In this document: piece by piece, positions 8,030-64,000 of the stretch
How the letters are laid out: every line of letters starts with the position of its first letter
How positions within the stretch are numbered: position 1 is the first letter of the stretch
Origin: a virus
Lineage: Duplodnaviria > Caudoviricetes
Strand: one strand, 5' to 3'
IMG/VR virus record: IMGVR_UViG_3300032007_000058
Coordinates: 1 to 64,000 of that record
DNA: 64,000 nucleotides
The notes under the pieces: model-generated
What the model saw: the letters and a program-made list of their open reading frames with translations, nothing else
Database searches by the model: none
What the model was told of the DNA's origin: nothing
Made by a program: the position numbers and the translations under genes

Positions 8030-8426
8030 CGACAAGACCGCGCGGGGCTGGGACCTGCCCCACGCGGATAACTACCTAGAGGACGATGTGGAGCGCCTTC
8101 GGGGCGCATTGACCGCAGCCGATGAGGACATGACCGATGTATCCGATTCCATCTCCGCTATCCAGGCCGATCTGGCGCAACGCCCGAAGGACGTCGTGAT
8201 CACATCGCACGCACTCACTGCCGCCGAGGTCACGGCAAAGTCCTTCACGCTACCGTCCACGCCGGACGGCGCGGTGCTCGTTTCGGTGCTGGGCCTGGTC
8301 CATCGGCCCGGCGTGGATTATGCGGTCTCGGGAAACACTCTATCCTGGAACGGCCTGGGCTTGGAGCAGAACGCCCTGGTCGAGGGGGATGTGTTTGTTT
8401 TGGTCTACAAGACGAAAGGGGCATAA
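8022..8426 (+). CDS. Short tail-fibre adaptor with duplicated N-terminal docking domain
   Basis: DDKTARGWDLPH...DVERLRGAL resembles the N-terminus of 5698..7476; C-terminal GVDYAVSGNTLSW...GDVFVLVY beta domain. Confidence 0.6.
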   Translation: MRDDKTARGWDLPHADNYLEDDVERLRGALTAADEDMTDVSDSISAIQADLAQRPKDVVITSHALTAAEVTAKSFTLPSTPDGAVLVSVLGLVHRPGVDYAVSGNTLSWNGLGLEQNALVEGDVFVLVYKTKGA

Positions 8427-8429
8427 AAA

Positions 8430-9045
8430 ATGAAGCTGGATCCAAGGGGCATCGATACTGAGGCAGTGTTACGGGGGGGGGGGTAGTAACACTACTCTAG
8501 CCCAGATGGTGGAAGATGTAGCGGCGTCGGTAAAGAACGGGAATAGCGAGCTCCCCCCCTTTCCCGGCGGGGCAAGTATCGCAGGAGCAGCAGGTCCTTC
8601 TAGGTATATGCAGATTCGCGGCGACTTTGACGACAAGGGGCGCGTGGCCATTAATTTATTCGATACTCATTTAGAGTTGTTTAAGGATGAGGGTGAAGGG
8701 TGGATCTCACGCGCGGTATATATACCCCACGAGGATACGGGATGGGTAGAGCTTACGACGGGGAACGTATGGTATCGCAGGCGGGATGGGGTCGTGTATG
8801 TGCGGGTGTTCGTTACGCCTACATTCACGGTAATCCCGGGGGCAACGGTCCATGTATTCGCGACTTTACCCGAAGGATGCCGCCCCCCCATGCGTATGGA
8901 GAGCGTCATTAGCGTCGAGCATCCCGATATGCCAGCCAGATGTGCTCAATTCTTTGTTGAGCCAGACGGAGGAATAAAGATGTGGTCCTATACCGCTATA
9001 CCAGCTGGGACGAATGTCATTGGGGCTATCTCTTTCCCGGTCTAG
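8430..9045 (+). pseudogene. Small receptor-binding-like protein frameshifted at a G11 tract (8473-8483); G10 would give a 204 aa ORF
   Basis: ATG 8430 reads MKLDPRGIDTEAVLRGGG-stop; the +1 frame continues into ORF 8506..9045, which resembles 9701..10288 (DTGWV/DSGWV, TLPEG). Confidence 0.7.
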
Positions 9046-31954: not shown

Positions 31955-33187
31955 TTATTTTTTATCCAGCCGCTCCACCGCTCGGAGCTTGGCCTCTGGG
32001 GCCAGGTGGGCGTAGCGGAGGGTCATCTTCATATCCGCGTGCCCCAGGAGCTCACGGACGGTGTTCAGGTCCACGCCCGCCATGACCAGTCGCGACGCGA
32101 AGTCGTGGCGCATGTCGTGCCAGCGGAAATCTTCTATCCCCGCCCTCTTTATTAGCCCGTCCCAAGCGCTGCGACAGCCCCCCATCGGGCCGTCTCCCTG
32201 TGGAGAGGGGAAGACCGGGGCGTCCCCTTCCCCTTTCGTCTGGGCTCGCCACTTATCGAGCACCTCCTGGGCGGTCTTGTTGAGGGGGATCCGTATGGTC
32301 TTCCCGCTCTTCGAGGACGCCGCGCGGACGGTCAGCACTCCGTCCTGGATGTCACTCCAGCGCAGGGCCAGGAGCGAGCCGCGCCGGATGCCCGTGTTGA
32401 GGGAGAGGAGCACCATCGGCTTCAGGTGGTCGGCGAAGTCTTCCTTATCTATATGGGGGAGAGGATCCATGTGCCGCGCCTTGAGCCATTCGTTGTATCG
32501 TTCCCTGGCGGCGCGGAGCTCGGCCTCGCGCTCCTCCATCGCCTCGAATAGACGTTCCCTCTCATCGTCGGAGAGATAGCGGACGCGGCTGTCCGATTCG
32601 TCCCGTAGCGTCTCCAATCTCCCTAGTGGATAGGTATCGATGATCTCCCGCTTGTAAGCCCAATTCAGGGCGGCTTTCAGGGCCGTGACCTTCCTATTTA
32701 TAGTGGATGTCATCAACCCCCGCTTCCGGGCCGCCGTTCTCCAGGCCTCGACGTCGTGGAGAGAGAGCGTATCGAGGTCACGGTCCAACAGGGGGGCGAA
32801 GGCCGATCGGAGGAGGGCGAGCGTTTCGCCGCCGCTGCGGCGGTTCTCCAGCACCCACGGGCCATAGACGTTATCGAGGAAGGCCCCGAAGGACATCCGC
32901 TCTGGGCGCGACTCCTTCTGCCAGGGCTCCTCTCCCTTGGCGAGCGCGGTGAGGAACTCTGTCGCCGCCAGCCGGGCGTCCGGCAATGAGATTAGGTCAG
33001 CGTCCCCGATCTTATAGTGAGATGACTTTCCAGAGGCTTTCCTGTAAAATACATACCACGTCTTCTTGCCCTTCGCGCCGACGTAGAGCTGGAAGCCCCG
33101 TGTCTGGGCATCGGACCACCACGTCCCCTTGTCCCCATCGGGCTTGACGGAGAGCAGGAAGGACTGTGTGAATCGTACCTTTGGCAT
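31955..33187 (-). CDS. int: Tyrosine integrase with N-terminal arm-binding domain
   Basis: TGIRRG, SKSGK, WHDMRHDFASRL, LLGHADMKMTLRY catalytic residues. Confidence 0.97.
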   Translation of the reverse strand: MPKVRFTQSFLLSVKPDGDKGTWWSDAQTRGFQLYVGAKGKKTWYVFYRKASGKSSHYKIGDADLISLPDARLAATEFLTALAKGEEPWQKESRPERMSFGAFLDNVYGPWVLENRRSGGETLALLRSAFAPLLDRDLDTLSLHDVEAWRTAARKRGLMTSTINRKVTALKAALNWAYKREIIDTYPLGRLETLRDESDSRVRYLSDDERERLFEAMEEREAELRAARERYNEWLKARHMDPLPHIDKEDFADHLKPMVLLSLNTGIRRGSLLALRWSDIQDGVLTVRAASSKSGKTIRIPLNKTAQEVLDKWRAQTKGEGDAPVFPSPQGDGPMGGCRSAWDGLIKRAGIEDFRWHDMRHDFASRLVMAGVDLNTVRELLGHADMKMTLRYAHLAPEAKLRAVERLDKK

Positions 33188-57222: not shown

Positions 57223-58353
57223 ATGGCATGGATCGAAGCCCATCAGGGGCTTGCGCAACACCCAAAGACGAAACGCATGGCCCGGATGCTGGGCATCTCG
57301 ACAGCCGAGGCTATCGGGCATCTGTTCATGCTCTGGTGGTGGGGCATGGACTACGCTCAGGATGGGGATCTGTCGAAGTACGATGAACTTGACATCGCTG
57401 ACGCCGCGCAATGGACCGGTGACGCAAAGGCATTTATCGACGCCTTGAAAAATTGCGGACCTGGGGATTCTTCGGGCTTCATCGACGAGCACGACGGGAG
57501 GGTATCCCTTCACGATTGGGACGCATACGCGGGACGCCTCTTTAACATCCGCGAGCAGAATCGGGAGAGGCAGGCGAGGCATAAAGAGCAAAAAAAGATC
57601 GAGGCCGCGCGTGAGCAACGGGATAGTGACGCGGATATAACAGACGGGTCACGCGTTAGTAACGCGTCGGTAACGCGTGAGCAACGGGACGATAACGCAC
57701 AGGTAACGCGTTATAAAAGCGTTAGTAACGCGCCGGTAACGCGTATACATAACATAACCAACATAACAGAACAGAACAAGACAGAACAAGACCTACAAGA
57801 CCTACCCCCCCCTACCCCCCCCGCCGGGGGGAGCCCCCCCGAGGGGGACTCGCAGGCGTCATCGGGAGGCCCCGAAAGCCCCCCTAGCTCCGTAGGGGGC
57901 GAGGCAGGGAACGGGCAGGGCTGCACGCTCTCGCAGGTGATCCGGCTCTGGAACGAGGAGCTAGGGCCTCTCGGGTTCCCGAAGGTCGCGAAGGGGACGC
58001 CCGCGCGGGACAGGTGCTTCAGCGCGCGCGTCGGGGAACAGGCAGAGCGGAGAGACCTGGAGTGGTGGCGGGAGCGTATCGCCCAGCTCGCCGCGTCGGA
58101 CTTCATGCGCTCATCGGCCAGAGATAAGGCCAACTGGCTCAACTTCGACTGGCTGCTGAACGAGAGCAACCTCGTGAAGGTCGTCGAAGGGCGCTACGCG
58201 AACGGTAAGAGCCTGCCCGCTAGGAGCGGGGGGGCAAGGTCTTCGCCGCCAAGCGCCCGGGATGCCCCGATGACCTACGAGGAGGCCGTCGCAAAGTTCC
58301 GAGGTAGCAGTACCGCTGTGGACGTGGAATATATCGACGTCGAGGAGGGATGA
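57223..58353 (+). CDS. Phage replication initiator (replisome organiser)
   Basis: MAWIEAHQGLAQHPKT, AIGHL..LWWW, LHDWD.Y, NFDWLL. Confidence 0.88.
   Translation: MAWIEAHQGLAQHPKTKRMARMLGISTAEAIGHLFMLWWWGMDYAQDGDLSKYDELDIADAAQWTGDAKAFIDALKNCGPGDSSGFIDEHDGRVSLHDWDAYAGRLFNIREQNRERQARHKEQKKIEAAREQRDSDADITDGSRVSNASVTREQRDDNAQVTRYKSVSNAPVTRIHNITNITEQNKTEQDLQDLPPPTPPAGGSPPEGDSQASSGGPESPPSSVGGEAGNGQGCTLSQVIRLWNEELGPLGFPKVAKGTPARDRCFSARVGEQAERRDLEWWRERIAQLAASDFMRSSARDKANWLNFDWLLNESNLVKVVEGRYANGKSLPARSGGARSSPPSARDAPMTYEEAVAKFRGSSTAVDVEYIDVEEG
57652..57806 (+). repeat. Iteron-like repeats inside the initiator gene: probable ori
   Basis: GTAACGCG at 57659, 57670, 57703, 57725, 57736, then an A-rich AACAG/ACAAGAC run. 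Confidence 0.75.
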
Positions 58354-59006
58354 CCATGCGGAAGGACGAATTCAACGCATTTCGAGAGCTCATGTCCCGA
58401 GCGGCGGATATCACCGTCATGCCCAACGGGAAGGACCTGGAGCGCGTCACGCTGGCGCTGTTCGAGGGGCTGGAATCGTATCCGTTCGTGGACGTGGCCG
58501 AGGCCGTGGCGGCCTATTGCCGGTCTGAGCGATTCTTCCCGATGCTGGCGGATATCGTGGAGCGCATCGAGGGCAAGGGCAGTGACAAGGGGCTCCTAGC
58601 TTGGAGCATGGTCCTGAAGGCCGTGGCCCGCTATGGGCACTGGGAGTCCGTGCGCTTCCCGGACCCGACGATCCACTGGGCCGTGGCGCACATGGGGGGA
58701 TGGCGGCACTTATCGCCCCGCATCACGGACGATAACGAGCGTTTCCTGGCGCAGGACTTCGCTCGCTGGTACGCCATAGGCGAGCGGGCGATATCGGCGG
58801 GCGAGGAGCCCCCAGCCTACCTCGTGGGCGAACACGAGGCGGACAACAGGGCACGGGGCTACGCCATGCGTGGGATCCGTGACGTGGAGACAGGGCGTAT
58901 CCTGCCAAGCGGGGAGGCTCCAGCTCTGGGGGCGTCCACGGCGCAAGCCAAGCCATTGATCCAGCTCGTAGCTGGCGGGATGGACGCCCGAGAGGCCGTG
59001 CGATGA
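58350..59006 (+). CDS. Replication accessory protein (DUF6475-like)
   Basis: ERFFPMLADI, AWSMV, SVRFPDP.IH.AV..MGGW. Confidence 0.7.
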   Translation: MTMRKDEFNAFRELMSRAADITVMPNGKDLERVTLALFEGLESYPFVDVAEAVAAYCRSERFFPMLADIVERIEGKGSDKGLLAWSMVLKAVARYGHWESVRFPDPTIHWAVAHMGGWRHLSPRITDDNERFLAQDFARWYAIGERAISAGEEPPAYLVGEHEADNRARGYAMRGIRDVETGRILPSGEAPALGASTAQAKPLIQLVAGGMDAREAVR

Positions 59007-59380
59007 AGACGCTATTGAGCGTCACTCTGGCCGGGCTGCCCCCGACGGTCAATCACCTGTACCGGACATCGCCTCGGGGCTTCCGGTACAAGACCAAGGC
59101 TGGGAAGGTCTGGCAGGAGGACACGGCCCTGATACTCCGGACGGCGTGGGGGGGCAAGCCGCCGCTGGGCAAGGAGGACGGCATCTTCGTGCAGGTCTTG
59201 TTCATGATGGGCAACGAGCGGGCCTGGGATATGGACAACCGGATCAAGGCCCTACAGGACTGCCTCCAGATGGCGGGCATCGTCCGTGACGACCGGGAGA
59301 TAGACCACCTCTGGGTCGACCGGGAGAGGGGACTGGCGACCGACGCCACCAAGGTCTCTGTGGGGACGGTGGCTGGCTGA
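59003..59380 (+). CDS. rusA: RusA-family Holliday junction resolvase
   Basis: LPPTVNHLY, DMDNRIKALQDCL...GIVRDD. Confidence 0.92.
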   Translation: MKTLLSVTLAGLPPTVNHLYRTSPRGFRYKTKAGKVWQEDTALILRTAWGGKPPLGKEDGIFVQVLFMMGNERAWDMDNRIKALQDCLQMAGIVRDDREIDHLWVDRERGLATDATKVSVGTVAG

Positions 59381-59904
59381 TGGGGGGCGAAGGTATGTCC
59401 GAGCATGACCTGGTTCTGGCCGAAGATACGCGGGCGTCCTCTACGCCCATCAAGGACCGTCCCTACTGGCCCTTCCGCTTCGCGGAGCGGTGTCTGTACG
59501 AGTTCCACGAGAATGCCGCCAGGCTGGATATCCTGCGTGAGGACCTAAAGGTCCTGGATTCGACGACCTCCGCAGCGGTCCCGAAATATGACCCGCTCTC
59601 GATACACGGCGGGGGACCGTCGGATAACGTCTCGGCCCGGCTGGAGCGCATCGAGAAGCTGGAGGAGGATATCAAGCGGCTGGATCGGCGCGTCAGCCCC
59701 ATCCAGAGGCTCATCGATGACCTGGGGGCTCCCTACGTCCTGGACGATTCCCCGAAGGCCGAGATGTTCAAGATCTTGGAGCTATATTACTTCGGCAATA
59801 ACGTCTGGACCACCGTAGCCAGGGAGCTCCACATGGCGAAGCGCACGTTCTTCCGGAAGCGCGAGGATCTGGTCCGGTTAGCCATCCGCTACATGGGGCT
59901 CTGA
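59380..59904 (+). CDS. ArpU/RinA-like late transcription activator
   Basis: Last gene before the packaging module; C-terminal ILELYYF...VARELHMAKRTFFRKR HTH. Confidence 0.75.
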   Translation: MGGEGMSEHDLVLAEDTRASSTPIKDRPYWPFRFAERCLYEFHENAARLDILREDLKVLDSTTSAAVPKYDPLSIHGGGPSDNVSARLERIEKLEEDIKRLDRRVSPIQRLIDDLGAPYVLDDSPKAEMFKILELYYFGNNVWTTVARELHMAKRTFFRKREDLVRLAIRYMGL

Positions 59905-59910
59905 TCCATG

Positions 59911-59950
59911 TGGCACTAATTTGGCACTGGCGTGGCACTGGCGTGGCACT
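59911..59950 (+). promoter_or_regulatory. Four TGGCACT direct repeats at 11-bp spacing before the late promoter
   Basis: Starts at 59911, 59922, 59933, 59944; TG-N-TATCAT extended -10 at ~59967-59975. Confidence 0.75.
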
Positions 59951-60080
59951 GATATCCGTTTTCCTGTGGTATCATCATAGCGTCGAATAGCGCGAGAAAG
60001 ACATCTCTCATGATCTCCTCGATGGGGGCGTCCTGTATACGGACGCCCTTTATCTTTATGCGCGGAAAGGGAAAGACATC

Positions 60081-60698
60081 ATGCCGAACGACAATATCAG
60101 CATCGCAGGGACGGTCAAGGTCCTGCCCGTAAAGGACCTGAAGGGGTACGAGAAGAATCCCCGCAAGAACGATAACGCGGTGGAGGCCGTAGCGAACAGC
60201 ATCAGGGAGTTCGGTTTCAAGGTCCCTGTCATCGTCGACAAGGACAACGTGATCGTCGCCGGACATACGCGCATAAAGGCCGCCAAGCAGCTTGGCCTGA
60301 CGGAGGTCCCCGTCATCGTCGCCGATGACCTGACGCCGGAACAAGTCAAGGCCTTCCGCCTAGCCGATAACAAGGTCGCCGGGCTCGCGGGCTGGGATTG
60401 GGACATGCTCGCAGCCGAGATGGACGCTATCACCGATATCGACATGGGGCTCTTCTCGTTCGACGCCATCCCCACGAGCGAGGAGATCGAGTCCTTCTTC
60501 GAGCCTATCCCCTCCTCGCAGGACGGGGAAGGGACGCCTGCCCCCAACACAGCGCCAGGGGAGCCGGACGCTCCAAGGGGAGAGGCCCCGGCGCGTCAGG
60601 TCGAACGGGTCTCGTCCGTGGATAGCGGGGAAGCGTCGTATCTCAGGATCACTTGCCCGCACTGCGGGGAGACGATCGTGCTGAACGACGGCGCATGA
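60081..60698 (+). CDS. ParB/Srx N-terminal domain protein
   Basis: YEKNPRKND, SIREFGF, IVAGHTR, AFRLADNK; C-terminal CPHCG. Confidence 0.92.
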   Translation: MPNDNISIAGTVKVLPVKDLKGYEKNPRKNDNAVEAVANSIREFGFKVPVIVDKDNVIVAGHTRIKAAKQLGLTEVPVIVADDLTPEQVKAFRLADNKVAGLAGWDWDMLAAEMDAITDIDMGLFSFDAIPTSEEIESFFEPIPSSQDGEGTPAPNTAPGEPDAPRGEAPARQVERVSSVDSGEASYLRITCPHCGETIVLNDGA

Positions 60699-61546
60699 AG
60701 ATCTATCTCGTTGGCGGGCATGGCAACATCGAGCGTATCGAGCCCCCGGTCTCGCCACAGGACCTAAAACGCCTCAACTGCCTTGTGAGCATGATCGCCT
60801 TCAGGCGCTTCAGGTACGCCCCGCATGAGTTCAAGAGCTTCATGCTCGATAGCGGGGCTTTCTCGTTCCTGCGTGGCGCCTCGGATGCGCCGGACTGGGA
60901 CAAGTACCTCGACCGATACATCGCCTGCATCAACGAGAACGCTATCGACCTGTTCTTCGAGCTGGATATCGACCCCCTCGTCGGGTACGAGAAAGTCAAG
61001 GAGTTTAGGGCACGCCTGGTGCGAGAGACGGGTAAATTTCCCATCCCCGTATGGCATAAGTCCAGGGGGAGGGACGAATGGCTCCGCATGTGCAGCGAGT
61101 ATCCCTACGTCGCCATCGGGGGCTTCGCCATAAAGGTCTTCAAGCCGTCGGAATTCCGCTTCATCCCCTACCTCCTCGACGAGGCGCATAAGCGCGGGGC
61201 GAAGGTCCATGGGCTCGGGTTCACTTGGCTGCGGCTGCTCGACAAGTACCCCTTCGATAGCGTCGACTCCAACAGTTGGACGGCTGGGAGCATGTACGGG
61301 AATATCTACAAGTTCCACAACGGGCAGATGAAGCTCTTGGGGCGCTCTAATCGGGACGGCAGGGGCAGAGGTAAGGGGCACGAGCTGCACCGCAATAATT
61401 TCTACGAGTGGCTGAGATACGCCGAGTACATGGAGGCAAAATACAGCGATGAGAAAGATCGTCCACAGGGTCGAGGACGGTATGGACAGGCAGGATATCC
61501 TCTGCACGACGTACCAGATGCGCAATTTCTACACGCAGTTCCATGA
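60695..61546 (+). CDS. TGT-like (DpdA-like) base-exchange transglycosylase
   Basis: MLDSGAFS, FELD, PIPVWH, VHGLG, PFDSVDSNSW; similar to TGT-barrel motifs; overlaps the next gene by 98 nt. Confidence 0.65.
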   Translation: MKIYLVGGHGNIERIEPPVSPQDLKRLNCLVSMIAFRRFRYAPHEFKSFMLDSGAFSFLRGASDAPDWDKYLDRYIACINENAIDLFFELDIDPLVGYEKVKEFRARLVRETGKFPIPVWHKSRGRDEWLRMCSEYPYVAIGGFAIKVFKPSEFRFIPYLLDEAHKRGAKVHGLGFTWLRLLDKYPFDSVDSNSWTAGSMYGNIYKFHNGQMKLLGRSNRDGRGRGKGHELHRNNFYEWLRYAEYMEAKYSDEKDRPQGRGRYGQAGYPLHDVPDAQFLHAVP

Positions 61547-62267
61547 CGGCTTCTTCAGCAACCTCGACGTCATGAACTACATCCAGCACTACCGGGCGGC
61601 GCAGATGGCGAAGAAGGGCGATAACGTCGTGGACGTCTGCTGTGGGCGCTCGCTGATGCTCCCGCTCCTCCGCTACCACGCGAAGGACATCGCCAGCTAT
61701 ACGGGCGTCGATATCTCGAAGGCGAATATCGGCGAGGCGATGCGGGGCTGTGTCAAGAAGGACCTGAAGCCCCAGGACCTCGCATCCTACTACCCCTTCA
61801 AGGTCGCCTGGAAGCTAGGGAACGTTGCGGAGATGAGCAAGGTCATCCCTGAAGGGTCCGCCGACCTCGTGATCTATACATCGGCGATCGAGCATATGCA
61901 CCCGGATGACGGGCGCAAGAGCCTGGAGGAATGCGCGAAGATCATGAAGCCTGGGGCGACGATGATCCTGTCCTGTCCCAATACCCCTGGCAATGGCTAC
62001 GACGCGCAATATCGAGCCCACGTCTACGAGTGGGGATACGACGAGCTCAAGGTGGCGCTTGAGGAGATCGGGCTCAGGGTAGAGCAGGAGGTCGGCCTCG
62101 TGCTTGGAGCTAAGGAGATGGACGAGCTCTATGCCGCCCAGCCCGAGGACGTGAGGCAGTTCTACGCGAGGATGAAGGGATACCTGCCCATGCCCTGGCT
62201 GTCGGTAGTGATGGCGGTCCCATTCCCCAAAGCGTCCAAGGAGCTCTTATTCATCGTGAGGAGGTAA
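61449..62267 (+). CDS. Class I SAM-dependent methyltransferase
   Basis: VVDVCCG, YTGVDIS, SAIEHM, LKPG-like MKPG, HVYEW. Confidence 0.85.
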   Translation: MRKIVHRVEDGMDRQDILCTTYQMRNFYTQFHDGFFSNLDVMNYIQHYRAAQMAKKGDNVVDVCCGRSLMLPLLRYHAKDIASYTGVDISKANIGEAMRGCVKKDLKPQDLASYYPFKVAWKLGNVAEMSKVIPEGSADLVIYTSAIEHMHPDDGRKSLEECAKIMKPGATMILSCPNTPGNGYDAQYRAHVYEWGYDELKVALEEIGLRVEQEVGLVLGAKEMDELYAAQPEDVRQFYARMKGYLPMPWLSVVMAVPFPKASKELLFIVRR

Positions 62268-62292
62268 CGCGCCCCTGGTGGGCAAAGGAAAC

Positions 62293-62964
62293 ATGAGCAA
62301 GACAGATAACAACTTAGCGATATTGACGGTCCTGTTCGTCGTGAGCCTCGTCATCTCGAACGTGGTCACGGCGAAGCTGTTTTATACCGGTGTCCCCCTG
62401 TGGGGGGAGGTGGTGGTCCTGCCAGGGGCCGTCGTCTGCTACGCGCTGACGTTCCTGTGCACTGATATCATTGGCGAGATCTGGGGCAAGGCAGCGGCGA
62501 GCCGTGCGGTAGTCTACGGCTTCATCGGCCAGGTAGCGGCGTCCCTGATGATCCTGTTCACCCAGATGCTCCCCACCGTCAGCCCAGAGCTCCAGGCGGC
62601 CTATGACACCCTCCTGGGGCAGAACCACATCTTCGTCTTCGGCTCGCTGGTCGCCTACTTCGCGTCGCAGCTCTGGGACGTGTATATCTTCCACGCCATA
62701 CGCGAACGGTGGCTGTCGAGGCGTGGGACCACATCGGCGCGGTGGATCTGGAACAACGTAAGCACGATGACCAGCCAGCTCATCGACACGGTCCTCTTCG
62801 CGGGCATCTCGTTCGGCATCGGCTTCGGCTGGCTGTTCGATCCGCATATGCGAGGGGCGCTCCTCTCGATGATGGCCGGGCAGTACGTCTTTAAATTCCT
62901 GCTGGCGGCGCTGGATACGCCGTTCTTCATGTTCTTCACCAGGGGCACAGAGGCGCTATCGTAG
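62293..62964 (+). CDS. yhhQ: VUT/YhhQ-family queuosine-precursor transporter
   Basis: SNVVTAK, YALTFLCTDIIGEIWG, GSLVAYFASQ.WD, RN-like NN.STM.SQLIDT, LAALDTPF. Confidence 0.93.
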   Translation: MSKTDNNLAILTVLFVVSLVISNVVTAKLFYTGVPLWGEVVVLPGAVVCYALTFLCTDIIGEIWGKAAASRAVVYGFIGQVAASLMILFTQMLPTVSPELQAAYDTLLGQNHIFVFGSLVAYFASQLWDVYIFHAIRERWLSRRGTTSARWIWNNVSTMTSQLIDTVLFAGISFGIGFGWLFDPHMRGALLSMMAGQYVFKFLLAALDTPFFMFFTRGTEALS

Positions 62965-63029
62965 CGTGCCCAGGGCAGTACTAGGGGGGCCGGTAGGTAG
63001 AGCTTGAGTGGGGAGCGAGGTGAGAGGAT

Positions 63030-63482
63030 ATGGCGAAGAGGGGACGGCCTAGGAAAGAGTTCGATCGAAAGCTATTCGAGTCGCTCTGTGGGCTCCAGTG
63101 TACGCTCGATGAAATAGCCTCGGTATTCAGTTGCGATAACAAGACTGTGGAACAATGGTGTAAACGTGAGTACGGCAAGAATTTCTCCGAGATTTTTAGG
63201 GAAAAGAGGAATATCGGCAAAATATCGCTCAGGCGGGCACAATGGAGATTGGCGGAGAAGTCCCCTGCTATGGCTATCTTCCTCGGCAAGAACTTCCTGG
63301 GGCAGACCGATAAGCAGGACGTAGAGGTCTCTGGCCCTAATAACGCCCCAGTCGTCATGAAGCACCAATACGACCTGAGCGGGCTCTCCATGGGCGAGAT
63401 AATGACTCTGGAGGCGATCCTGTCTAAAGTAGAGAGCAATAAGGCGGGGGGCGTCAAGGATGGACCTACCCAGCCTGAGTGA
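63030..63482 (+). CDS. terS: Terminase small subunit
   Basis: GRPRKEFD...CTLDEIA...SLRRAQW.LA..SPAMAIFLGKNFLGQ.D. Confidence 0.88.
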   Translation: MAKRGRPRKEFDRKLFESLCGLQCTLDEIASVFSCDNKTVEQWCKREYGKNFSEIFREKRNIGKISLRRAQWRLAEKSPAMAIFLGKNFLGQTDKQDVEVSGPNNAPVVMKHQYDLSGLSMGEIMTLEAILSKVESNKAGGVKDGPTQPE

Positions 63483-64000
63483 GGTACGAGCCTGGAAGCG
63501 GGAGCTGGCCTGCAAAGATTATGGAGCTTACGTCGAGCTGGTCCATCGCGGGCGCTGGAGACGGGCAAGACATCTCGACCTGTTATGCAGCCTCCTTAGA
63601 TCCGTCGAGGATGGGACAATTCCGCGACTTATGGTCTCGATGCCTCCGCGCCATGGCAAGTCTATGGCGGTGACAGAGACCTTCCCGAGCTGGTTCTTGG
63701 GGAAGCAGCCGGACCGTCGCGTCATCGAAGTTAGCTATGGCGATAAATTCGCTCAGAAATTCGGGCGCGCCAATCGCCGTAAGATCGACGAATTTGGGAT
63801 GGAGCTCTTTGGCGTTTCCATATCCAGCGATAACGCCTCAGTGACGAACTGGGGGATCAAGGGGCGTGCTGGGGGTATGATATCAGCCGGGGTCGGTGGG
63901 GGCATCACCGGGGAGGGGGCGGACCTGCTTATCATCGACGACCCCATCAAGAACCGCAAGGAGGCGGAGTCCCTGACCTACCGCGAGACCTTATGGGCGG
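63460..64000 (+). CDS. terL: Terminase large subunit (3'-truncated by window edge; not in ORF track)
   Basis: MVSMPPRHGKS Walker A, SYG...A..FGR, AGVGGGITGEGADLLIIDDPIKN. Confidence 0.95.
   Translation, partial: MDLPSLSEVRAWKRELACKDYGAYVELVHRGRWRRARHLDLLCSLLRSVEDGTIPRLMVSMPPRHGKSMAVTETFPSWFLGKQPDRRVIEVSYGDKFAQKFGRANRRKIDEFGMELFGVSISSDNASVTNWGIKGRAGGMISAGVGGGITGEGADLLIIDDPIKNRKEAESLTYRETLWA

Follow-up and report, generated by a model that had tools for sequence, protein, structure and literature searches.

The window analysed here, bases 1-64000 of the linear, 85,940-bp IMG/VR virus record IMGVR_UViG_3300032007_000058 (CheckV completeness 72%), carries four genes at 60081-62964 that probably form a salvage-type 7-deazaguanine DNA-modification module at the head of a temperate phage's packaging operon. 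In order, they encode a ParB_N-domain protein, a transglycosylase related to tRNA-guanine transglycosylase (TGT) and of the DpdA type, a class I S-adenosylmethionine (SAM)-dependent methyltransferase (hereafter MT) and a YhhQ-type precursor transporter. A first-pass annotation, made from the sequence alone, had read the last three as a contiguous unit lying after a ParB-domain gene and before terminase. All four genes are indeed contiguous, tightly packed and on the + strand. The locus had been given as starting at 60081; that position opens the ParB gene, and the TGT-like gene starts at 60695. The ParB-domain gene, treated there as a landmark, is where it was said to be and turns out to be a translationally coupled part of the module.

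The identities of the genes, their folds, their conserved motifs and their linkage are the firm results; beyond these, we envisage the module working as follows. YhhQ would import a queuosine-precursor base that the phage, and probably its host, cannot make, raising its pool in the infected cell. DpdA would then swap guanines of replicated phage DNA for the imported base before packaging, by a two-aspartate transglycosylation, with the acidic ParB_N protein, coupled translationally to the basic DpdA, acting as its accessory. MT would add one methyl group to the deazaguanine, either as the free base or once it is in DNA. The leading candidate substrates of MT are the carboxyl of 7-carboxy-7-deazaguanine (CDG), which would give a methyl ester, and the amine of preQ1.

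Evidence for a DpdA-type transglycosylase

The TGT-like gene matches phrog_887, named 'queuine tRNA-ribosyltransferase', at E 3.4e-44. Weighing against the assignment, no model in Pfam or NCBIfam recognizes the protein. The canonical TGT family (PF01702) gave no match at E 0.01 in either the protein or a six-frame search of the whole record, and a sequence search of PDB chains returned nothing at E 10, so the TGT relationship is not visible to PDB sequence search and a fold search was needed.

A profile of 30 homologues aligned by hhalign with the DpdA of phage 9g (gp03) at 98.9% probability and E 1.3e-17 over 219 columns, with ~28% identity between the window and 9g proteins. The LDSGAF, LDxxxD, HGxG and DSxDS motifs (DSSSW at the last motif) are in register. 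Within the 30 homologues, D52 (LDSGAF), D91/D93 (ELDID), H172 (HGLG) and D188/D191 (FDSVDS) are invariant, as is a WH motif. Salmonella DpdA uses a general acid/base Asp, a base-recognizing Asp and His, and a nucleophile Asp (PMC10164549); matched to it by motif, D52 would be the general acid/base, the Asp/His residues would recognize the base and the late Asp would be the nucleophile. An AlphaFold (AF2) model with a mean confidence (pLDDT) of 85.7 points to a TGT-type (beta/alpha)8 barrel: the best 50 chains found by VIA-align are all TGTs, at Z 15.4-16.0 over 244-252 residues and a root-mean-square deviation of 3.7-4.1. The earlier proposals that this gene is of the DpdA type and that it has the barrel fold are thus both supported.

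We infer that its target is DNA rather than tRNA. It is very unlikely that the enzyme acts on tRNA and that the module boosts queuosine-type tRNA modification during infection, even though it belongs to the TGT superfamily and its predicted hosts depend on precursor salvage for queuosine in tRNA. The protein is a homologue of 9g DpdA and not a canonical TGT, and no cysteine is conserved among the 30 homologues, which means that the TGT zinc site is absent. In addition, there are no tRNA genes in the window, the TGT-like enzyme almost always has a ParB_N partner, and the hosts already own a TGT.

The family is large, with 3825 proteins at E <= 0.001 that all lack a precomputed Pfam domain, and basic (median pI 9.2). 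Although the open reading frame was listed as 60653-61546, its real start is almost certainly the ATG at 60695, which overlaps the ParB stop (ATGA). Homologues stop near residue 252. The window copy lacks that stop and extends by ~31 residues that are unconserved and modelled with low confidence, and this is why it overlaps the MT gene by 98 nt (61449-61546). At the other end, many homologues (P0007, P0008, P0017, P0026, P0089, P0091, P0121) carry two to five tandem copies of M-D-[IL]-Y-L-A-G, of which the window protein has one; either the segment is genuinely repeated or the copies reflect alternative starts lying one after another.

A transporter in place of precursor synthesis

The fourth gene scores 142 bits against PF02592 (Vut_1; E 2.4e-41, cut-off 27.2) and 121 bits against TIGR00697, 'queuosine precursor transporter' (E 5.4e-35, cut-off 50.95). 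Against the E. coli-type model NF008406 it reaches 30 bits only, with a cut-off of 252, so the model match does not fix its substrate preference. The absence of folE, queD, queE and queC from the window, noted in the first-pass annotation, extends to the whole record: a six-frame search with hidden Markov models across all 85,940 bp found no QueC, PTPS/QueD, GTP cyclohydrolase I (FolE), radical SAM/QueE, QueF or canonical TGT. One point weighs against reading this as a property of the phage, namely that the record is only ~72% complete, so that the searches do not prove the phage itself to lack the de novo genes. Among relatives, though, such genes invariably adjoin DpdA.

To compare relatives, we collected 80 IMG/VR loci with a DpdA profile and 80 with MT, plus assemblies, and classified neighbours with seed proteins; a single-sequence DpdA scan of IMG/VR had given no confirmed locus and an alignment-based scan was needed. 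Of 81 distinct DpdAs for which 3 kb or more of downstream sequence is available, 63 precede a transporter only, 17 de novo genes only, none both and one neither. The transporter is either YhhQ or QueT (PF06177), and the de novo set is QueD-QueE-FolE. This mutual exclusion, which holds for 80 of the 81, indicates that the transporter stands in for synthesis, as had been proposed for this phage. The salvage design of the module is therefore well supported.

The hosts point in the same direction. Closely related prophages lie in genomes of Faecalibacterium prausnitzii, one of them near 2.35 Mb of NZ_CP186691.1, and in genomes of other Faecalibacterium and of Gemmiger. A bacterial TGT is encoded in these genomes (E 1e-156), but QueF is absent and QueC has no credible match, the best scores being 23 bits or less and falling in long, unrelated open reading frames. 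The bacteria must therefore themselves depend on imported precursor. An Oscillospiraceae bacterium such as Faecalibacterium is probably the host of the phage studied here; the G+C content of the window, ~59%, is compatible with hosts of the Faecalibacterium/Gemmiger type.

Reliance on imported precursor has been proposed before for phages that encode only DpdA, or DpdA and YhhQ (PMC6884629). Phages 9g and CAjan have a homologous transglycosylase, DpdA1, with the same expected exchange of guanine for a 7-deazaguanine in DNA (PMC6884629, PMC10516641). Unlike those systems, the window has no FolE, QueD, QueE or QueC and has an extra class I methyltransferase.

A ParB-like partner with a CPHCG tail

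The first gene of the module encodes a ParB_N protein (PF02195, E 9.8e-10, residues 12-92; phrog_620, 1.8e-55) with a GxxRxxA box (AGHTRIKAA), an acidic linker after residue ~100 and a C-terminal CPHCG. In 132 of the 135 loci with enough upstream DNA, such a gene sits immediately 5' of DpdA in the same orientation, and its stop often overlaps the DpdA start, as in the window (ATGA), in Fusobacterium phage phiFN37 and in two further loci (L003, L004). The ParB-like gene, near-universal and translationally coupled, belongs to the module. The DpdA-linked partners are ~180 aa long and acidic (pI ~4.6); of 99 distinct ones, 91 have the GxxRxxA box and 97 a C-terminal CxxC, mostly CPHCG.

The tail marks the association when the search is run in reverse. 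Starting from ParB, proteins with the CxxC tail had a DpdA downstream in 16 cases and none in 6, while proteins lacking the tail, many of them long fusions, had a DpdA downstream in 1 case and none in 53. Among the six tail-bearing exceptions, a divergent DpdA-like gene comes next in one (L202) and DNA methylases in three (L234, L243, L249). The ParB_N-CxxC type seems to assist DNA-modifying enzymes generally.

Bacterial DpdA requires the ParB-superfamily ATPase DpdB (PMC10164549), and in mycobacteriophage CRB2 a ParB-like open reading frame beside DpdA has been suggested as a possible dpdB (PMC6392294). Apart from that remark, we found no description of the ParB-CPHCG partner in the literature. 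By analogy with DpdB, we propose an accessory role for the ParB-like protein in DpdA function. The Salmonella Montevideo DpdA-DpdB-DpdC system (PMC10164549) shares with the phage module the pairing of a TGT-fold DpdA with a ParB-superfamily protein, but the phage protein is short (~180-205 aa) and acidic, has GxxRxxA where DpdB has DGQQR, and ends in a CPHCG tail where DpdB has a helical C-terminal domain. The phage also lacks the restriction genes dpdD-K, and MT stands in the window where DpdC would be.

Several observations weigh against this proposal. The ParB-like protein has neither the DGQQR NTPase motif of DpdB nor its alpha-helical, SspE-like C-terminal domain, which makes it an analogue at most and not a DpdB member, and none of the NCBIfam Dpd models matches it. 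Whereas the DpdA lineage of the window is preceded by a ParB_N-CPHCG gene, the DpdAs of 9g and BCD7 have no ParB neighbour, and the DpdA2 of phage VH7D is active alone in E. coli (PMC10516641). A helper is therefore not generally required, and the need for one, if real, would be lineage-specific.

A methyltransferase family tied to 7-deazaguanine clusters

The third gene matches Methyltransf_23 (1.9e-13) and also Methyltransf_11/25. In an alignment of 22 sequences, 88 columns are invariant, including VDVCCGRS and YTGVDIS; a glycine-rich SAM motif I, an acidic post-I residue and a seven-strand Rossmann-like fold place the protein in class I. The gene truly starts at 61449, because alignments with homologues of 58-82% identity begin at residue 1-2. 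In public gene calls the start is put at M24, which resolves the overlap with DpdA and thereby loses the invariant CTTYQMRNF motif. The family counts 750 proteins at E <= 0.001, and some of its clusters have hundreds to thousands of members.

Close homologues of MT lie in deazaguanine clusters in 79 of 79 IMG/VR cases, nearly always directly after DpdA, and of 10 homologues found in prokaryote genomes, 9 are likewise part of a DpdA or Que cluster. Copies of only 35-46% identity, on contigs of Pseudomonadota and Bathyarchaeia, keep the same company. The exception is a 34% identical homologue in a Ktedonobacteria genome, set amid PTPS, radical-SAM, aminotransferase and kinase genes with no DpdA; the association may fade below ~35% identity. 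The only phage homologues outside deazaguanine clusters are ~27% identical. This distribution is that of a dedicated family tied to 7-deazaguanine clusters, which we found undescribed in the literature.

The idea that MT gives a methylated derivative thus gains its tie to the pathway, every close homologue being clustered, whereas the identity of the product is a candidate only and there is no homology to the known deazaguanine methylase DpdM. We regard MT as a candidate new tailoring enzyme, and every aspect of its chemistry discussed below is what we infer from its setting.

Structure comparison offers no substrate clue. The AF2 model (pLDDT 88.5) has a class I fold, with Z 15.7-17.7 to many class I enzymes in the structure library; among viral structures the matches are generic methyltransferases and capping enzymes, and in the ESM Atlas they carry generic names. 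Three points weigh against our reading of MT: some 50 class I enzymes tie as structural matches, small-molecule and RNA methyltransferases alike; the pI of 6.7 gives no hint of DNA binding; and on the DpdA tree the presence of MT requires a minimum of 4-7 gains or losses, so that DpdA is not visibly specialized for it. By the last result, MT is an accessory that moves between DpdA clades rather than characterizing a single one. We had considered whether MT-linked DpdAs form a single clade, which would make them a specialized DpdA, and rejected this for the same number of changes.

A variable tailoring slot after DpdA

What follows DpdA differs between relatives, which makes this position a variable tailoring slot: it is either empty or occupied by a DUF6884 protein, a QueF-L-like protein, QueC, MT, or MT with a QueF-L-like protein. 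The commonest arrangement with MT, ParB-DpdA-MT-QueF-L-like-QueT, occurs in over 60 loci, mostly of one gut lineage, and a YhhQ version of it in 6. MT followed by QueD-QueE-FolE without QueC is found in 15 loci of several lineages and MT together with QueC in 2 (L163, L173), while MT-YhhQ alone occurs in this window and one other locus (L161).

The DUF6884 protein (L004:6903-7313, L002:6736-7170 and others) has a weak likeness to YaaA/DUF328 (E 3e-5 to 1e-4). In many sister modules it takes the position that MT has in the window, which mirrors the three-part layout of DpdA-DpdB-DpdC. If DUF328 is the family of DpdC, as we take it to be, these phages may mirror the bacterial trio and make 2'-deoxy-7-amido-7-deazaguanosine (dADG) from imported preQ0. 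Phage phiFN37 (OR492271) is of this kind: its CDS0147-0144 have the same order and overlap as the window, namely ParB-like, DpdA (33% identical), slot gene and queuosine-precursor transporter, but the slot gene is DUF6884 and not MT. Its record annotates the genes singly and not as a system.

The QueF-L-like protein (for example L056:2782-3087, L003:6740-7081, L081:2174-2485) is a T-fold protein, ~100 aa long, from a family that Pfam does not recognize and in which Cys, Glu and His residues are invariant. It aligns with the archaeosine synthase QueF-Like (PDB 5jyx) at E 1.8e-4 with the catalytic Cys matched. It is found only in transporter-type clusters, with or without MT, and never with QueC-QueD-QueE.

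In de novo clusters, MT frequently stands where QueC would be. Of the loci that encode both QueD and QueE, 21 have QueC only, 15 MT only, 1 both and 1 neither, counts that are not phylogenetically independent. Two loci, L039 and L049, have flanks that are 94-96% identical and differ by a DpdA+QueC versus a DpdA+MT cassette, in which the DpdAs are 65% identical.

Two further arrangements deserve mention as observations in their own right. In L181 (3001-5104), which shares the L039/L049 backbone, ParB_N-CPHCG is followed directly by QueD-QueE-FolE, with DpdA, QueC and MT absent between them, apparently a deletion variant of the cassette. In the de novo cluster of L013, a small gene with a phosphoribosyltransferase domain (8262-8588; PF00156, E 7e-9) sits between QueC and QueD, a hint that the pathway of some lineages includes a step at the nucleotide level.

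Candidate substrates of the methyltransferase

It is tempting to read the exchange of QueC for MT as a change of enzyme on the same substrate. MT would then be a carboxyl O-methyltransferase that takes over QueC's substrate and turns CDG, or dCDG in DNA, into a 7-methoxycarbonyl derivative, an undescribed base; we hold this to be possible but doubtful. The pattern of MT instead of QueC spans several lineages at 61-75% identity as well as a 35% identical Pseudomonadota contig, and precisely this swap sets L039 apart from L049. CDG is a base that DpdA2 is able to insert, and dCDG is natural (PMC10516641). Class I carboxyl methylases of modified bases exist, for example CmoM (PMC12783734), and the carboxyl methylases ChlM and Trm9 are among the best structural matches of MT, although these matches are ties and do not discriminate. 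The two lineages that have QueC and MT together speak against an ester, as does the fact that most members of the family, including that of the window, belong to transporter-only clusters, where import of CDG is not established. Many MTs, moreover, stand beside the QueF-L-like protein, which is expected to need the preQ0 nitrile.

For a cluster with only MT and YhhQ, as in the window, the simplest reading is that MT methylates the aminomethyl nitrogen of preQ1 or dPreQ1. The product would be mdPreQ1, the sole methylated deazaguanine known in phage DNA (PMC10516641), and MT would be a non-orthologous replacement of DpdM. YhhQ-type and QueT-type transporters both import preQ1, and the likely hosts, with a bacterial TGT and neither QueC nor QueF, depend on imported precursor. 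We hold this reading, too, to be possible but doubtful, for it leaves unexplained why de novo clusters with MT are usually without QueC and never have a canonical QueF: such phages could not reach preQ1 unless the host provided both enzymes.

DpdM, the only deazaguanine DNA methylase known so far, comes from the Cellulophaga phage phiSM and the Vibrio phage VH7D (PMC10516641). Like MT, DpdM is a phage methyltransferase encoded beside deazaguanine genes, and it adds one methyl group. However, DpdM belongs to DUF3109, a metal-binding family marked by CxxxCxxCC, and MT, a Rossmann-type class I SAM enzyme of unrelated fold and family, has no similarity to it. Phages with DpdM encode the full preQ1 pathway including QueF, which MT clusters never do.

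Methylation of a ring position common to all deazaguanine derivatives, an open alternative, would fit every cluster context but leaves the QueC pattern unexplained. Its precedent is HuiC of the huimycin/dapiramicin pathway, which O6-methylates preQ0 (bioRxiv 10.64898/2026.04.15.718813). HuiC, compared here by its description, is a class I enzyme of the Methyltransf_11 type and acts on the free base, which sets a precedent for methylation before incorporation. It differs in belonging to a secondary-metabolite pathway of Actinomycetota with no DpdA, and O6-methylation would disturb base pairing in a genome.

Finally, MT might act on another DNA base, on tRNA or on a small molecule, and merely travel with DpdA in a modification island before terminase. 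The position is often held by DNA methylases in temperate phages, a few ParB_N-CxxC genes precede DNA methylases rather than DpdA, and MT has weak PHROG matches to 'tRNA methyltransferase' and a weak, recurrent likeness to cap guanine-N7 methyltransferases in Pfam and the PDB, a lead only. We consider this unlikely, since 88 of 89 MT homologues, including the 35-46% identical archaeal and proteobacterial ones, lie in deazaguanine clusters and the phage homologues outside them are so distant. A DPPY/NPPY-type motif of DNA methylases is also not visible in the sequence.

Returning to the module as a whole, we tentatively suggest a bolder version of our reading, in which the MT family makes a deazaguanine that is undescribed in DNA and common in prophages of abundant human-gut bacteria such as Faecalibacterium prausnitzii, and the ParB_N-CPHCG protein is an obligatory loader or activator for the DpdA lineage of the window. 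The best-supported candidate for such a base is the CDG methyl ester; in clusters with the QueF-L-like protein, a methylated archaeosine-like base is possible.

Genomic context of the module

Table 1. Coordinates of the module, its flanking elements and the packaging genes that follow it.
Feature	Position	Strand	Basis or remark
Four direct KTGGCACT copies, exact 11-bp spacing	59910..59950	+	just 3' of the regulator-like gene stop, 5' of both the hairpin and the ParB_N gene
Terminator-like hairpin, 10 pairs (7 G-C), then T-rich tail	60024..60050	+	consensus scan
ParB_N protein, 205 aa, pI 4.5	60081..60698	+	PF02195, phrog_620
DpdA-type DNA-guanine transglycosylase, 283 aa, pI 9.3	60695..61546	+	phrog_887, hhalign, fold
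Class I SAM-dependent methyltransferase (MT), 272 aa	61449..62267	+	Methyltransf_23/11/25
YhhQ/COG1738 queuosine-precursor transporter, 228 aa from GTG 62278; alternative ATG 62293	62278..62964	+	Vut_1, TIGR00697
terS, terminase small subunit	63030..63482	+	directly follows the module; phrog_309 (3.1e-10), phrog_4758 (2.3e-52) and Terminase_6N, jointly for terS and terL
terL, N-terminal part	63460..64000 (window end)	+	start of the packaging genes

The phage is temperate, with an integrase at 31955-33187. Upstream of the module, the + strand at 57223-59904 encodes a replication initiator, a DUF6475 protein, RusA and a regulator-like protein (phrog_36). The regulator-like gene is separated from the ParB_N gene by a 176-bp gap that holds the repeats and the hairpin (Table 1). 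The predicted hairpin would set the regulator gene apart from the module. Four of the five KTGGCACT occurrences in the 64-kb window fall in the array, which lies before the module and may bind a regulator of the late operon. Its first two repeats also match GG-N10-GC, a sigma-54-like spacing. Late expression coupled to packaging, as suggested in the first-pass annotation, would fit the position of the genes after the hairpin and directly before terS. A search of 59000-64000 found no preQ1 riboswitch and no other Rfam family.

Elsewhere in the window, a 537-aa protein at 54265-55878 matches DNA methyltransferase PHROGs (phrog_6263, 1.6e-22; best phrog_32703, 3.5e-41) and may provide a second, conventional DNA-modification function.

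Implications for gut phages

Phage DpdA systems and the idea of precursor import by YhhQ are already published (PMC6884629). What is new here is the definition of the ParB_N-CPHCG partner family, a dedicated class I MT family that frequently substitutes for QueC, and the modular make-up of the tailoring slot in a DpdA lineage that is very large, has no name and belongs to gut phages. The near-universality of the ParB_N-CPHCG partner suggests that a ParB-type helper is needed here as it is for bacterial DpdA, and such a shared need would be a mechanistic link between the phage and bacterial systems. For MT, the step from gene to chemistry yields a definite prediction, a species 14 Da above a known deazaguanine nucleoside.

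For phages, 7-deazaguanine modifications of DNA are a shield against restriction enzymes and Cas9. The modified DNA is in turn attacked by host glycosylases, which discriminate the substituent at position 7 (bioRxiv 10.1101/2025.10.29.685425). This gives phages a selective reason to diversify their deazaguanines and would make a new tailoring enzyme a new move in this arms race. The MT family is found in prophages of Faecalibacterium prausnitzii, a major species of the human gut. In metagenomes, modified DNA of such gut phages may be under-represented or mis-called by some sequencing chemistries.

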